A DNA stretch of 64,000 bases from a virus (lineage: Duplodnaviria; Caudoviricetes), in the IMG/VR virus record IMGVR_UViG_3300031857_000001. One strand, given 5' to 3'. A program made the position numbers and the translations under genes. Shown here one piece after another: positions 14,883-46,555 of this stretch; the stretch's first letter is position 1, and the number at the start of each line of letters is the position of its first letter. A model generated the notes under the pieces. That model did no database searches, was not told where the DNA came from, and was given only the letters and a program-made list of their open reading frames with translations.

Positions 14883-15923
14883 ATGAAAGTTTTATTGTCT
14901 GAAGAACAGTTAAAAACATTAATTAAGGAGGATTTGGGGGTGTCAAGGGCATCTTTGGCTTATGCTAATTTAATTTATCAAACATTAGAATCAAAAGCGG
15001 TTGAATTCATGGAATTAAGAAATGAATCTCAAGAAAAAATTGTTATCAGTTTACAAGATATGTCAAGAATTTATCAATCCAGTATGGATGACTATATTGA
15101 GTTACCTGTTGAAAAAATCGAGATTAATTTTATTTGTAGTAAGATTCCGAAAGGTAATAAAAATATTAAATTCACATCAGGAGGTGGTTTTGAATCAATA
15201 GACAAAAAATCTTTTGGTGGTTCTTATTTAAAAGAACCGTCATTAGAATTACCAAAATATGTTTTAGAGGAAGTTACACAAACTTTAGTTGCTAAATTTA
15301 GTTTGTATTTCAAATTGAGTTCAGATTTTAGTGACGAATTTAAAGATAAGGCACTATATGATTTGAGAGATACGATAATACATGAATGTAACCATCTTTT
15401 TGAAAGTTATAAAAGAGCCGAGTCAGGAGCAAAACAATTCAACGTTTCTTTAAGCTGGGTAGGGGGTAAAAATTATAATGTTAATAGAGAAATATTCAAA
15501 ATCTGGCAAGAATTTCTTGATATGATTTATTATTCAGAGCCATATGAAATAAATGCCAAATCACAAGAAGCGGTAAGTCAAACATCTATCATGTCATTCG
15601 ATGAATTCAAAAAAACCAAATTTTGGCAAGATTCATCAGTTATGAAAAATTTTAACTCAGAATTATATATTGATAAATTATTGAGTAAAATTCAAGAAGT
15701 AAATCCTGAAAAAACCATATCTATCTTAAATAATCTATATAAATGGTTCATGACGGATTATTATAAATGGATGAAAGTTCATGGTGAGTCTCCTGCCAGA
15801 TACATTGAAAAAACAACAGGGTTGTTTGACTTAGTTAAGAAGTTTAAAAGTAGAATTAACAAAGCTGGTGACAAATTACAGAGAAATTACATGAGACTGT
15901 ATACTTTGGACCTCGAAAAATAA
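14883..15923 (+). CDS. Late protein with N-terminal LSE/IKE motif and HExxH
   Basis: MKVLLSEEQLKTLIKE, IIHECNH, and EPYEINA. TATTTAT lies 4 nt upstream. Confidence 0.75.
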   Translation: MKVLLSEEQLKTLIKEDLGVSRASLAYANLIYQTLESKAVEFMELRNESQEKIVISLQDMSRIYQSSMDDYIELPVEKIEINFICSKIPKGNKNIKFTSGGGFESIDKKSFGGSYLKEPSLELPKYVLEEVTQTLVAKFSLYFKLSSDFSDEFKDKALYDLRDTIIHECNHLFESYKRAESGAKQFNVSLSWVGGKNYNVNREIFKIWQEFLDMIYYSEPYEINAKSQEAVSQTSIMSFDEFKKTKFWQDSSVMKNFNSELYIDKLLSKIQEVNPEKTISILNNLYKWFMTDYYKWMKVHGESPARYIEKTTGLFDLVKKFKSRINKAGDKLQRNYMRLYTLDLEK

Positions 15924-15948
15924 TCACATTGTCATATAATTTAATGAT

Positions 15949-15983
15949 AAACTGACATTTTGTCAGTTTTTTTGTTTTGGCAC
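15949..15983 (+). promoter_or_regulatory. Palindromic operator plus TGGCAC box upstream of dnaK
   Basis: AAACTGACA-TTT-TGTCAGTTT perfect inverted repeat, then TGGCAC at 15978. Confidence 0.45.
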
Positions 15984-16067
15984 ATTAATTAATAATGTAG
16001 ATTCGGAGTTGACTCCATAAAAGTTTTTTAATATACTTTAAAAAAAATAAAAATAATTTTTTAAACT

Positions 16068-17945
16068 ATGGGTAAAATTATAGGTATTGATTTAGGAACA
16101 ACAAATTCGTGTGTTGCCGTTATGGAAAATGGTGAACCTGTTGTGATTACAAACAGTGAAGGAAAAAGAACCACCCCTTCGATTGTTGGTTTTTCAAATG
16201 GTGGTGAGAGAAAGGTTGGTGACCCGGCAAAACGTCAAGCGGTTACAAATCCTGATAAAACAGTTTACTCTATTAAGCGTTTTATGGGTGCAAGCTTTGA
16301 TGAAAGTAAAAAAGAAATCAAGCGTGTTCCTTATAAAGTGGTTAAGGGTGAAGGTAACACTCCTCGTGTTCAAATTGAGGATAAGAAGTATTCTGCTCAG
16401 GAAATCTCGGCGATGGTTCTTCAGAAAATGAAGCAAACTGCTGAAGATTATTTGGGGGAAACTGTGACCGATGCGGTTATTACAGTACCCGCGTATTTCA
16501 ATGATGCTCAACGTCAAGCAACAAAAGAAGCTGGTGAAATTGCGGGTCTAACTGTTAAACGTATCATCAACGAACCAACCGCAGCTGCACTTGCCTATGG
16601 TCTTGACAAAAAAGGTCAGGATATGAAAGTTGTTGTGTTCGACTGTGGTGGTGGTACTCATGACGTATCAGTTCTTGAACTTGGTGACGGCGTATTTGAA
16701 GTTTTGTCAACTGACGGTGATACTCACCTCGGTGGTGATGACTTTGACCAAGCAATTATTGATTGGTTGGCAAAAGAGTTCCAAGATGAAAATGGAGTTG
16801 ATTTGACAAAAGACCCGATGGCTCTTCAGCGTCTTCGTGAAGGTGCTGAAAAGGCAAAGATTGAATTGTCATCTTCACCATCAACAGAAGTCAATCTACC
16901 TTACATTATGCCGGTAGATGGTATGCCAAAACACTTGGTTCGTACATTGACAAAGGCTAAGTTCGAGCAGTTGGTTGATAGTTTGGTACAACGTACAATT
17001 GCACCATGTAAATCAGCTTTGAAGAACGCAGGTTTGAAACCAAAAGACATCGATGAAGTTATCTTGGTTGGAGGTTCGACTAGAATTCCGGCAATCCAAG
17101 AGGCTGTTAAAAAGTTCTTCGGTAAAGAACCATCAAAAGGAGTTAACCCTGATGAAGTTGTTGCGCTTGGTGCGGCAATTCAAGGAGGAGTACTCGCAGG
17201 TGATGTAAAAGACGTATTGTTGTTGGATGTAACACCACTTTCACTTGGTATTGAAACAATGGGTGGAGTTTTCACAAAACTTATTGAGTCTAACACAACA
17301 ATTCCGACTAAAAAGTCACAAATTTTCTCAACGGCAGTTGATAACCAACCATCAGTAGAAATTCACGTTCTACAGGGAGAAAGAGCAATGGCTCAAGACA
17401 ATAGAACAATTGGTCGTTTCTTCCTTGATGGACTTCCAACGGCAATGAGAGGAGTTCCACAAATCGAAGTAACTTTTGACATCGATGCAAACGGTATCAT
17501 TAATGTTTCTGCCAAAGACAAAGCGACTGACAAAGAACAATCAATCCGTATCGAAAGTTCAACTGGACTTTCTAAGGAGGAAATTGAACAAATGAAGCGT
17601 GACGCTGAGTTAAATGCTGAGTCAGACGCTAAAGCTCGTGAAAATGTTGACATTATGAATCAAGGAGATTCAATGGCATTCCAAACTGAAAAGACTTTAA
17701 AAGATTTGGATGAGAAAATGACCGATGAGCAAAAAACTCAACTATCTGAGGCCTTATCCGAATTAAAAACCGCTTTGGAAGAAAAGGAAGTTGAGAAAGT
17801 TAGAGACGCGACGGCAAAAGTTGCAATAACCTCTCAAACAATCACTCAATCAATTTATAGTCAGACCGCTTCTGAAGGTACTGGTGACGAACCTACTAAT
17901 GAAGAAGTATCTGATGTAGATTTTGAGGAAGTTGAACCTAAGTAA
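16068..17945 (+). CDS. dnaK: Chaperone DnaK (Hsp70)
   Basis: [34 protein letters not shown] and [14 protein letters not shown]. Full length. Confidence 0.99.
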
Positions 17946-45285: not shown

Positions 45286-45327
45286 ATTAATTTTATTTAT
45301 TCACAAACTTGACCTATCTTTGTCAAT

Positions 45328-46155
45328 ATGCAAAGAGACCTAAATTTACTTAAATCTGTTTTATCCGTACCAACAAAAACTTATCAAGAAGATTTGATGA
45401 TTGAGTTTTTGATTGATTGGTTAACCAAAAATAACATTGAATATTCTGTTGATGAACATTGGAATGTTTATGCGACAAAGGGTGAAACTACAGATGATAA
45501 TTTTTATTATCCTTGTGTAGTTGCTCACACCGATACCGTACATGATATCGATGTTATTAATATTAGAGAAGAAGAACTGGAAAACTATCAAGGTGAAATA
45601 AAACCATCCCTGAAAGCTTATAACGATTTCGGTAGACCGACCGGTATTGGTGGTGATAATAAATGTGGTGTTTTTGCTTGTTTGGAATTATTAAAAGAAC
45701 TTGACCATTTAAAGGCTGTGTTTTTTGTTTCAGAAGAAACAGGATGTCACGGTTCAAGAAAGGCTGACCCAAATTTCTTTTCTGACGTTGGTTATGCGAT
45801 TCAATTTGACGCTCCGTTTAACTGGATGGTAACTGAGTTTTGTATGGGGGTTAAATTGTTTGAAAAATCAGAAGAATTCTTTAAAAAATGTGACAATGTA
45901 ATAAAAGAAACATTCCAAGGTAGACAAAAGTATGGGTCTCATCCTTATACCGACGTTTACGCACTAAAGAATAAGTTTGATTTCTCTTGTATAAACATTT
46001 CAATTGGATATTACAATTATCACACTGAAGAAGAATACGTTGTGATTGAGGACACTTTCAATGGTGTTGATACAGGTAAAAAAATGATTGAGTCATTGGG
46101 TAATAAAAAATATTATTTGACCCCTCGTAAGGATTCTCAGTTTTTACTTTTCTAA
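45328..46155 (+). CDS. M28/M20-like Zn-dependent peptidase
   Basis: VAHTDTV, GGDNKCG, SEETG..GS and GYYNYHT..E. Confidence 0.85.
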   Translation: MQRDLNLLKSVLSVPTKTYQEDLMIEFLIDWLTKNNIEYSVDEHWNVYATKGETTDDNFYYPCVVAHTDTVHDIDVINIREEELENYQGEIKPSLKAYNDFGRPTGIGGDNKCGVFACLELLKELDHLKAVFFVSEETGCHGSRKADPNFFSDVGYAIQFDAPFNWMVTEFCMGVKLFEKSEEFFKKCDNVIKETFQGRQKYGSHPYTDVYALKNKFDFSCINISIGYYNYHTEEEYVVIEDTFNGVDTGKKMIESLGNKKYYLTPRKDSQFLLF

Positions 46156-46177
46156 GATATTTATAAAAAAAAATATC

Positions 46178-46555
46178 ATGGGAAAAGTTATAAGATTGTC
46201 AGAATCCGATTTGGAAAAAATAGTACAAAAAGTAATTGAGGAACAAGAAACCCAAGAAGGTTTAGGTGACATATACCAAGGTTTAAAGGGTGTTTGGAGA
46301 GGAGAAGGTTATGATTATTTTAAATACTTAAGTTCTTTAAGAGGTATTACTCGTAAATTAAAAAAATTAGATGAACCTAATGTTAGAGTCATGGGCGATT
46401 TATATCAACTCAGGACTAAAGTGGATACATCTAAAATGCCAACGGATAAAAAAAGTAATTTACTTAATACTATCGACGCTGCTATGGACCACTTCAAATC
46501 TTATTCAACTCTGATTAATAAAATTGAACAACTATCAACACAAAAATTAGCATAA
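46178..46555 (+). CDS. Putative internal head protein
   Basis: MGKVIRLSESDLEKIVQKVIEEQ. Late motif upstream. Confidence 0.75.
   Translation: MGKVIRLSESDLEKIVQKVIEEQETQEGLGDIYQGLKGVWRGEGYDYFKYLSSLRGITRKLKKLDEPNVRVMGDLYQLRTKVDTSKMPTDKKSNLLNTIDAAMDHFKSYSTLINKIEQLSTQKLA

Follow-up and report, generated by a model that had tools for sequence, protein, structure and literature searches.

We analyzed a 64,000-nt stretch of a virus of the class Caudoviricetes (IMG/VR record IMGVR_UViG_3300031857_000001). The stretch (hereafter the window) corresponds to bases 240417–304416 of a complete 321,403-bp virus record. In this genome and in others of the same clade, proteins with unrelated bodies start with one N-terminal leader of 22 residues, with the consensus M-K-K-[IV]-[IV]-R-L-T-E-S-D-L-x-R-[IL]-V-K-R-V-I-x-E. 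There is hardly any doubt that this leader is a portable protein-level module: the tag is real and phage-specific, it is under selection as a protein, and it is sharply bounded at a hydrophobic-x-Glu motif (h-x-E). We consider it rather probable that the leader is a capsid-loading tag that is removed by a protease, i.e., a longer, clade-specific variant of the capsid-targeting sequence (CTS) of phage T4, used on a much larger scale. Below, positions are those of the window unless they are marked as genome positions, and a slash in a peptide marks a putative cleavage site.

Leader genes in the genome

A hidden Markov model (HMM) of the leader was built from clear cases and run against the whole genome, a count that the initial annotation of this DNA had proposed. 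Seven genes were matched with independent E-values (i-E) of 4e-10 to 5e-15 (window 19859, 43366, and 46178; genome 1709, 207783, 223114, and 223483), plus a single marginal one at genome 224749 (i-E 0.01). The initial annotation had quoted six N-termini from the window, all of which were located, and had described the bodies that follow as unrelated and the six genes as preceded by TATTTAT. Both descriptions hold. The bodies of the seven core proteins have no similarity to each other (all blastp E > 0.09), and TATTTAT was found upstream of all six genes, at offsets of −23 (19859), −23 (43366), −20 (46178), −20 (19258, minus strand), −11 (14883), and −13 (22946, minus strand). The claim that the six have one leader in common stands to different degrees: the HMM supports it for 19859, 43366, and 46178 and gave no match for the other three, of which 19258 (minus strand) is supported by its orthologues, 14883 is tentative, and 22946 (minus strand) is a matter of resemblance. 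The looser examples in the initial list proved to be heterogeneous.

The gene at 43366–43725 (plus strand) encodes a 119-aa protein with an ORFan body (i-E 8.5e-15). Its leader, MRKIVRLTESDLVRLVKRVINE/QDGK, occupies residues 1–22 (43366–43431), and from residue 23 onward the protein reads QDGKSDPLVNDVDPVSYLK. The 125-aa protein encoded by 46178–46555 (plus strand; i-E 7.4e-11) carries the leader MGKVIRLSESDLEKIVQKVIEE/QETQ in residues 1–22 (46178–46243), and had neither a Pfam nor a PHROG match. The 134-aa product of 19859–20263 (plus strand; i-E 3.8e-11; leader MNKIIRLTESDLKRIIEMVTAQMNE/G) consists, in the alignment, of the leader, a variable linker, a second site VLNE49/AEY, and a near-invariant body of 85 aa; phrog_7595 (unknown function) spans residues 52–134. 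A search with this body gave at least 8,000 matches at E ≤ 0.001, and the 120 matches listed were 61–99% identical. The body was found without the leader in Pelagibacter and Roseobacter podoviruses and siphoviruses. As a side observation, the body (residues 50–134), ...KVQLGKIMQGD...RARHNCDNPGPRWKPRYWACRTW, is a small domain of extraordinary conservation, of which the final ∼37 residues also occur in Nitrosopumilaceae spindle-shaped viruses.

A 176-aa protein encoded on the minus strand (18728–19258) starts with the diverged leader MKRITINEGELRKIIRQHLIEE/M (19193–19258). Orthologues of its body in three relatives bear MERIKIDEAQLRKVIRQRILEE, MRRLVKESDIRKALYKIIKE, and, in relative G012, MKKYRLNESDINRIIGKVLSE/Q; because the orthologues carry it, the N-terminus is taken as a diverged copy of the same leader. 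The 346-aa product of 14883–15923 (plus strand) has a short leader-like N-terminus, MKVLLSEEQLKTLIKE/DLGVSRA (14883–14930), and its orthologues retain MRVRLSEEQLKKLIKE and MKIVLNETQYSKLITE. It represents a conserved 16-residue short form, M-[KR]-[IV]-x-L-[SN]-E-x-Q-[LY]-x-K-L-I-x-E, whose membership in the leader family is tentative because the HMM match is not significant. The weakest of the six listed members is a 209-aa protein encoded by 22317–22946 (minus strand), which starts with MKLTVVINESQKKVLITE/S, has hydrophobic segments in its body, and resembles the others. At genome 2214 a truncated leader is found on a body that bears the full leader in a relative. Orthologues of the leader genes of the window are present in only 2–3 of 7 relatives.

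Spread and portability of the leader

A degenerate DNA pattern for the first 12 codons gave 2–13 matches in each of 8 complete genomes of the clade, and its reversed control gave none. Comparison of N-termini (residues 2–31) yielded 218 pairs scoring at least 35, vs. 35 pairs for internal segments. The recurrence of the leader is far above chance. A scan of IMG/VR detected at least 115 loci with at least 144 leader genes, and the carriers are genomes of 290–413 kb or fragments of such genomes. Phages of this clade probably infect freshwater Bacteroidota. In bacterial and archaeal genomes (596 Gb) just two leader matches were found, each on a 3-kb contig of a metagenome-assembled genome. The leader had no tblastn match in 50,697 deposited phage genomes, and a full-text literature search for the motif strings returned chance matches only. 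A leader profile of 30 columns was compared with 1.84 billion protein representatives (clusters at 50% identity), of which 8,406 matched at E ≤ 0.001, among them 720 with E ≤ 1e-10. For the 150 of these 8,406 that were listed, the best-scoring match mostly starts at residue 1–4; in a few it starts at residue 12–13, probably owing to miscalled start codons, and in a few it is an internal copy.

The peptide MKKIVRLTESDLVRLVKRVINE, in identical or near-identical form, heads ten database proteins with entirely different bodies, and clustering of the bodies of 139 leader proteins from IMG/VR (70–527 aa, median 140) gave 98 clusters. Orthologues of the 43366 body (69–75% identical; P0002 and P0003) carry other leaders, either the short MGDAKPLISE/QDGK or a different long one, ...RRFNQLLISE/QD..., in which the h-I-x-E/QD joint is kept (LISE/QD). 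Since one body can be headed by different leaders in which the h-x-E/Q joint is retained, or lack a leader in unrelated phages, the tag is portable.

The bodies are nearly all ORFans. Pfam and PHROG scans of the leader proteins of the window, 10 long IMG/VR bodies, and 89 representatives matched almost nothing; one marginal but sensible Pfam match (GNAT) came from the 89 representatives. A PG_binding_1 domain was detected in one of the 10 long bodies (L086) and in the protein-search match P0006, and transmembrane-like segments were seen in 8 of the 139 leader proteins. The isoelectric points of the bodies are mixed. Mixed isoelectric points and ORFan bodies fit fast-evolving accessory proteins, without telling what these proteins do.

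Anatomy and boundary of the tag

In the leader, a short basic strand (KKIIRL) is followed by a helix cap (TESDL) and then by a basic amphipathic helix with [ILV]-x-E at its end. In 136 distinct leaders the information content is high as far as position 20, with 2.5–3.6 bits at positions 14–20 and 22, and falls to 1.4 bits at position 21. It reaches 3.6 bits at Glu22 and is at most 1.2 bits from position 23 on. Of a larger set of 290 distinct leaders, 287 have I, L, V, or M at position 20; at position 22, 276 have Glu and none has Asp. Among the 14 leaders that lack Glu22, 12 have an [ILM]-x-E that ends 3–4 residues later, and most of these 12 form a subclass in which the helix is one turn (four residues) longer and [IL]-[LI]-x-E stands at the new end. 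Position 23 is Gln in 47% of the leaders.

Synonymous codons vary freely in the leader. Among 136 distinct leader DNA sequences, Leu is encoded at the invariant residues by any of its six codons, Thr by any of its four, and Ser by codons of both families; where two sequences have the same residue, their codons differ in 39% of the pairs. It is therefore the peptide that is constrained, rather than DNA or RNA.

An AlphaFold2 model of the 19859 protein (28 homologues) contains a helix at residues 9–24 as its sole confident part (predicted local distance difference test, pLDDT, 70–79). Because the pLDDT of the body is below 50, the packing of the leader on the body cannot be judged from this model. 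A model of the double-tagged protein P0150 (predicted template modeling score 0.17) has no confident contact between the two tags; self-association of the tag is thus neither shown nor excluded by it.

Other leader classes and internal copies

Unbiased clustering of N-termini recovered at least three further leader classes on unrelated bodies: M-x-K-R-h-h-I-S-E-E-E-K...h-x-E-Q, MNNI..YK.RFYGLMESTMGDVRP-h-h-x-E (this second class can also be written MNNI..YK.RFYGLMESTMGDVRPhhxE), and MNLQE.I.RIKE. An h-x-E(Q) ending is their sole common feature. When residues 9–40 were compared with the rest of the proteins, [LIV][LIV]xE was enriched 2.2-fold (p 9e-9) and [LIV][LIV]xEQ 9.4-fold (p 2e-10). An island of ∼16 kb (genome 209–225 kb) holds at least 14 genes, each headed by a leader of one class or another. 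In the window, N-terminal clustering assigned class B-like leaders to two plus-strand genes, one for a 174-aa acidic protein (24427–24951; MNSYFFKMTQAEKNNILDQHK) and one for a 336-aa protein (26144–27154; MDNKRKIGEEELKRALLMMKYDSKKTLTE...QILNE/W).

Many metagenomic representatives (P0135–P0284; e.g., P0140, P0136, P0150, and P0164) carry a second copy of the tag, internally or at the C-terminus. An [LIVMF]-x-E motif lies within the 12 residues before the internal tag in 25 of 45 cases, vs. 14 of 90 control windows (odds ratio 6.8, p 4.5e-6), and the upstream site often reads h-x-E/N-K-K. Such a site would be expected in a polyprotein that is cut into tag-headed units, whereas it would be superfluous for a docking helix that is not removed.

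Two further observations were made in this genome. Leader-like segments are present at the C-terminus and internally in the products of genome 3939–4658 (minus strand) and 167812–169029. A tandem array at genome 201182–204208 (minus strand) encodes at least six true paralogues of ∼100–130 aa that start with MKY[IL]ITESQ[IL], i.e., full-length homologues with a leader-like N-terminus.

Head genes and the TATTTAT motif

The 321,403-bp genome has direct terminal repeats and a G+C content of 32.7%, and it is T4-like. A prohead protease of the Peptidase_S77 (T4 gp21) type is encoded at 59901–60626 (plus strand; PF03420, E 1.1e-25; phrog_207, E 3e-44). It matched the T4 gp21 structure 5JBL with an E-value of 1.2e-14, and the motifs ELNHP and SSRG were both found. 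We presume that this is the enzyme that removes the leader. Between the protease gene and that of the major capsid protein (MCP) lies a gene for a very acidic 497-aa protein (60978–62471, plus strand), which is scaffold (gp22)-like by position and composition only and had no match in the PHROG scan. The 5' part of the gp23-type MCP gene occupies 62499–64000 (plus strand; PF07068, E 1.1e-63), and the full product in the genome has 619 aa. Upstream of the protease gene are a terminase-like gene (54762) and a portal-like gene (56559), both assigned by eye from the sequence and from gene order.

The YLINE/ATS segment that the initial annotation had pointed out in the MCP was confirmed at residues 56–63. 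The N-terminal region contains two candidate cleavage sites, LKE44/N and LINE60/A, which are equally good: alignment with mature T4 gp23* leaves the choice between them equal. It was also observed that the alignment with T4 gp23 covers only residues 65–106 and 289–593 of this MCP; an insertion domain may account for the ∼180 residues in between, which lack a counterpart.

The S77 protease was present in all 7 leader-carrying relatives sampled at ≥90% completeness. In the 412-kb relative G021, two leader genes adjoin the protease gene and lie between it and an unannotated open reading frame (ORF) of 155 aa. A complex prediction that combined the leader (residues 1–45 of the 43366 protein), the protease, and the scaffold-like protein scored 0.00; it was run without controls and is used neither way.

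TATTTAT is found on the plus strand at 43343–43349 (gene 43366), 19836–19842, 46158–46164, 14872–14878, 24404–24410, and 26123–26129, on the minus strand at 19272–19278 and 22953–22959, and at the genes of the head module at 54739–54745, 56523–56529, 59879–59885 (protease), and 60951–60957. In the whole genome it forms a sharp peak 24–20 nt before start codons and a second peak at −12/−11, and its extended consensus is A-TATTTAT-A-n3-AAA. It precedes 67 of the 363 genes of this genome, among them those for terminase, portal, protease, and the scaffold-like protein, as well as most of the very large structural-looking genes; the 67 are for the most part genes of head, tail, and other large structural-looking proteins. 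In the relatives, TATTTAT stands at −40 to −15 ahead of 82 of 141 leader genes, vs. the 67 of 363 among all genes of this genome (odds ratio 6.1, p 2e-17). By analogy with the T4 late promoter TATAAATA, we infer that TATTTAT may be a late promoter.

The genome also encodes a full-length Hsp70 (16068–17945, plus strand; PF00012, E 1e-257) and a double AAA+ ATPase of the ClpB/ClpA type (46568–48613, minus strand). Both genes sit within the region of the leader genes.

Comparison with the T4 capsid-targeting sequence

The T4 CTSs are N-terminal propeptides of 10–19 residues; they confer affinity for the prohead core on internal proteins, and gp21 removes them (PMC9026906). T-even phages possess diverse internal proteins that have only the CTS in common (PMC9026906; PMC3012670). 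Cleavage by T4 gp21 takes place after L/I-x-E; with Asp as the last CTS residue, processing is blocked, although targeting is not (PMC9026906). Like the CTS, the leader described here is a short N-terminal peptide on otherwise unrelated, non-essential-looking proteins, and it ends in hydrophobic-x-Glu. As in T4, a protease of the gp21 type is encoded together with an MCP of the gp23 type, and there is a scaffold-like gene; the cargo, like the T4 internal proteins, is diverse and changes between relatives, and some of its genes are clustered in an island. The initial annotation had read the leader as a capsid-targeting signal, and every T4-type feature that can be tested at the sequence level was found, namely portability, an h-x-E end, the S77 protease, and a promoter motif common to the head genes. 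The exception is the peptide itself, which has no sequence similarity to the T4 CTS, MKTYQEFIAE; by eye the two have only the M-K start and the I-x-E end in common. Because these features are present, save for peptide similarity, the leader is read here as a probable CTS variant. Unlike the T4 CTS, it is a basic strand-plus-helix module, it occurs 2–13 times per genome (more with the other leader classes) and on thousands of body families in a clade of ∼290–410-kb phages, and it has tandem, internal, and C-terminal copies.

In the mechanism that we propose, the tagged proteins would be made late, from TATTTAT promoters common to the head genes, and the tag would dock them onto the assembling prohead core. 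The gp21-type protease (59901–60626) would cut after Glu22, and in some proteins also at a further h-x-E site such as VLNE49/AEY in the 19859 protein. The mature cargo would then be freed inside the head and leave with the DNA at the next infection. We infer all of these events (binding to the core, cleavage, encapsidation, and ejection) at different strengths: cleavage at h-x-E is likely, capsid loading is somewhat more probable than not, and ejection into the host with the DNA is less certain again. In its widest form the proposal would make the 22-residue tag and the h-x-E joints a plug-and-play capsid-loading system across a clade of uncultured, freshwater, T4-like phages of ∼290–410 kb, with thousands of fast-evolving ORFan cargo families, including tandem-tagged polyproteins cut by the head protease; we put this forward tentatively, with the balance leaning slightly to the other side.

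Several points weigh against a protease-removed capsid-loading tag. At 22 residues the tag is twice as long as the T4 CTS, which it does not resemble in sequence. The putative cleavage site falls where a predicted helix ends. Conservation extends over the whole 22-mer and not over the cut site alone, which would suit any specific docking helix, and leader-like modules are found internally and at C-termini as well. Peptidoglycan-binding domains or transmembrane-like segments on some bodies are untypical of T4 internal proteins. Since all carriers are members of one clade, co-occurrence of leader and protease carries no independent weight, and the late-promoter status of TATTTAT is deduced only from the genes that it precedes.

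Alternative explanations

Some of these points would be accounted for if the leader were an uncleaved docking or oligomerization module, whose strand and amphipathic helix tether proteins to a hub other than the capsid interior and which stays on the protein. Candidates for the hub are a tail or baseplate part, the membrane, the phage Hsp70 or ClpB, or other leader-bearing proteins. Conservation of all faces of the 22-mer, beyond its h-x-E end, is what such a module would require, and the internal and C-terminal copies, the peptidoglycan-binding domains or transmembrane-like segments, and the presence of Hsp70 and ClpB-like ATPase genes speak for it too; the basic-hydrophobic leader also resembles a typical DnaK-binding segment. 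It would leave unexplained, however, why conservation ends at [ILV]-x-E, why Asp is absent from position 22, and why [IL]-[LI]-x-E is retained at the new end in the subclass whose helix has four additional residues. Nor would it explain why unrelated leader classes have only the h-x-E(Q) ending in common and why internal copies are likewise preceded by h-x-E. We judge a docking module to be unlikely. A propeptide without a targeting role, i.e., a folding aid or an inhibitory pro-segment for late proteins that is cut off by the head protease or another one, draws on the same cleavage-site evidence as a capsid-loading tag, and the tag is indeed dispensable, as the bodies that occur without it elsewhere indicate. 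One invariant 22-mer is nevertheless unlikely to be a specific inhibitor or chaperone for ∼100 unrelated folds. In addition, T4 gp21 works inside the prohead (PMC9026906), so that a substrate must be there anyway. Such a propeptide is quite improbable in our view.

Common descent and nucleic-acid function fare worse. The tandem cluster at genome 201–204 kb (MKYLITESQI...) does consist of true full-length paralogues, as an ordinary paralogous family with a slowly evolving N-terminus would predict. The core members, in contrast, have no body similarity, and the IMG/VR leader proteins form 98 body clusters with body lengths from ∼50 to 500 aa. One body can carry different leaders or none, and tandem and internal tags exist. 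Unrelated bodies, the 98 clusters, and leader swapping essentially exclude a simple paralogue family, to which we give very little credence. The 5' coding stretch always lies ∼20 nt 3' of the conserved promoter-like motif, a constant position that would suit a DNA or RNA signal for recombination or translational control, with the peptide incidental. Free synonymous sites (the 39% of differing codon pairs given above) essentially refute such an element, and its probability is close to nil.

Comparison with other leader and propeptide systems

Head and ejection proteins of the giant phages SPN3US and phiKZ have N-terminal propeptides that the prohead proteases of these phages cut after A-x-E or S/A/G-x-E (PMC10052503; PMC5694885). 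Many head-internal proteins of these phages are, as proposed here, cut after Glu by a related protease, and some of the propeptides have several sites. Unlike the leader, those propeptides are not one near-invariant tag, and their P3 residue is Ala, Ser, or Gly vs. Ile, Leu, or Val here. Encapsulin cargo-loading peptides and the precursors of ribosomally synthesized and post-translationally modified peptides (RiPPs), such as the prochlorosins with their conserved leader and variable core, follow a similar principle, in that many different payloads are directed to a single shell or processing enzyme by one short conserved peptide. The machinery is unrelated, though; encapsulin tags are mostly C-terminal and retained, and RiPP cores are short peptides, not proteins of 50–500 aa.

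Ribbon-helix-helix proteins such as CopG start with a basic strand, an L-[TS]-E-S-x-L helix cap, and an amphipathic helix A, and the leader has a similar pattern of strand, cap, and helix. The Pfam scan gave no ribbon-helix-helix match, and conservation stops at residue 22 with no conserved helix B. The likeness to CopG is a local structural resemblance only.

Significance of a possible capsid-loading tag

If the leader is a capsid-loading signal, a profile search would yield thousands of candidate injected proteins from metagenomes, nearly all of which are ORFans at present. Such candidates would be the first phage proteins to meet the host and the likeliest to counter its defenses, which would make the tag a handle for host-takeover and anti-defense proteins. 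The CTS principle of T4, known from about five T-even proteins, would be scaled up greatly in giant environmental phages, and foreign proteins could be packaged in phage heads by means of a long, well-defined tag with a defined cut site. An uncleaved tag would still be among the largest portable docking-peptide families seen in phages, with a partner worth finding.

Other genes near the head module

A 558-aa protein is encoded at 48934–50610 (plus strand), 5' of the head module, with TATTTAT at −12. It comprises phrog_36119 (unknown function, residues 11–241), a peptidoglycan-binding segment (residues ∼270–345), and another domain at the C-terminus. The protein may be a cell-wall enzyme, either virion-associated or used in lysis. 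Directly 3' of the MCP gene lies an ORF with a signal peptide (genome 305367–305942). In the same stretch (genome ∼305380–305715), the DNA resembles a gene of Flavobacterium phage immuto for an endonuclease-G-like nuclease.

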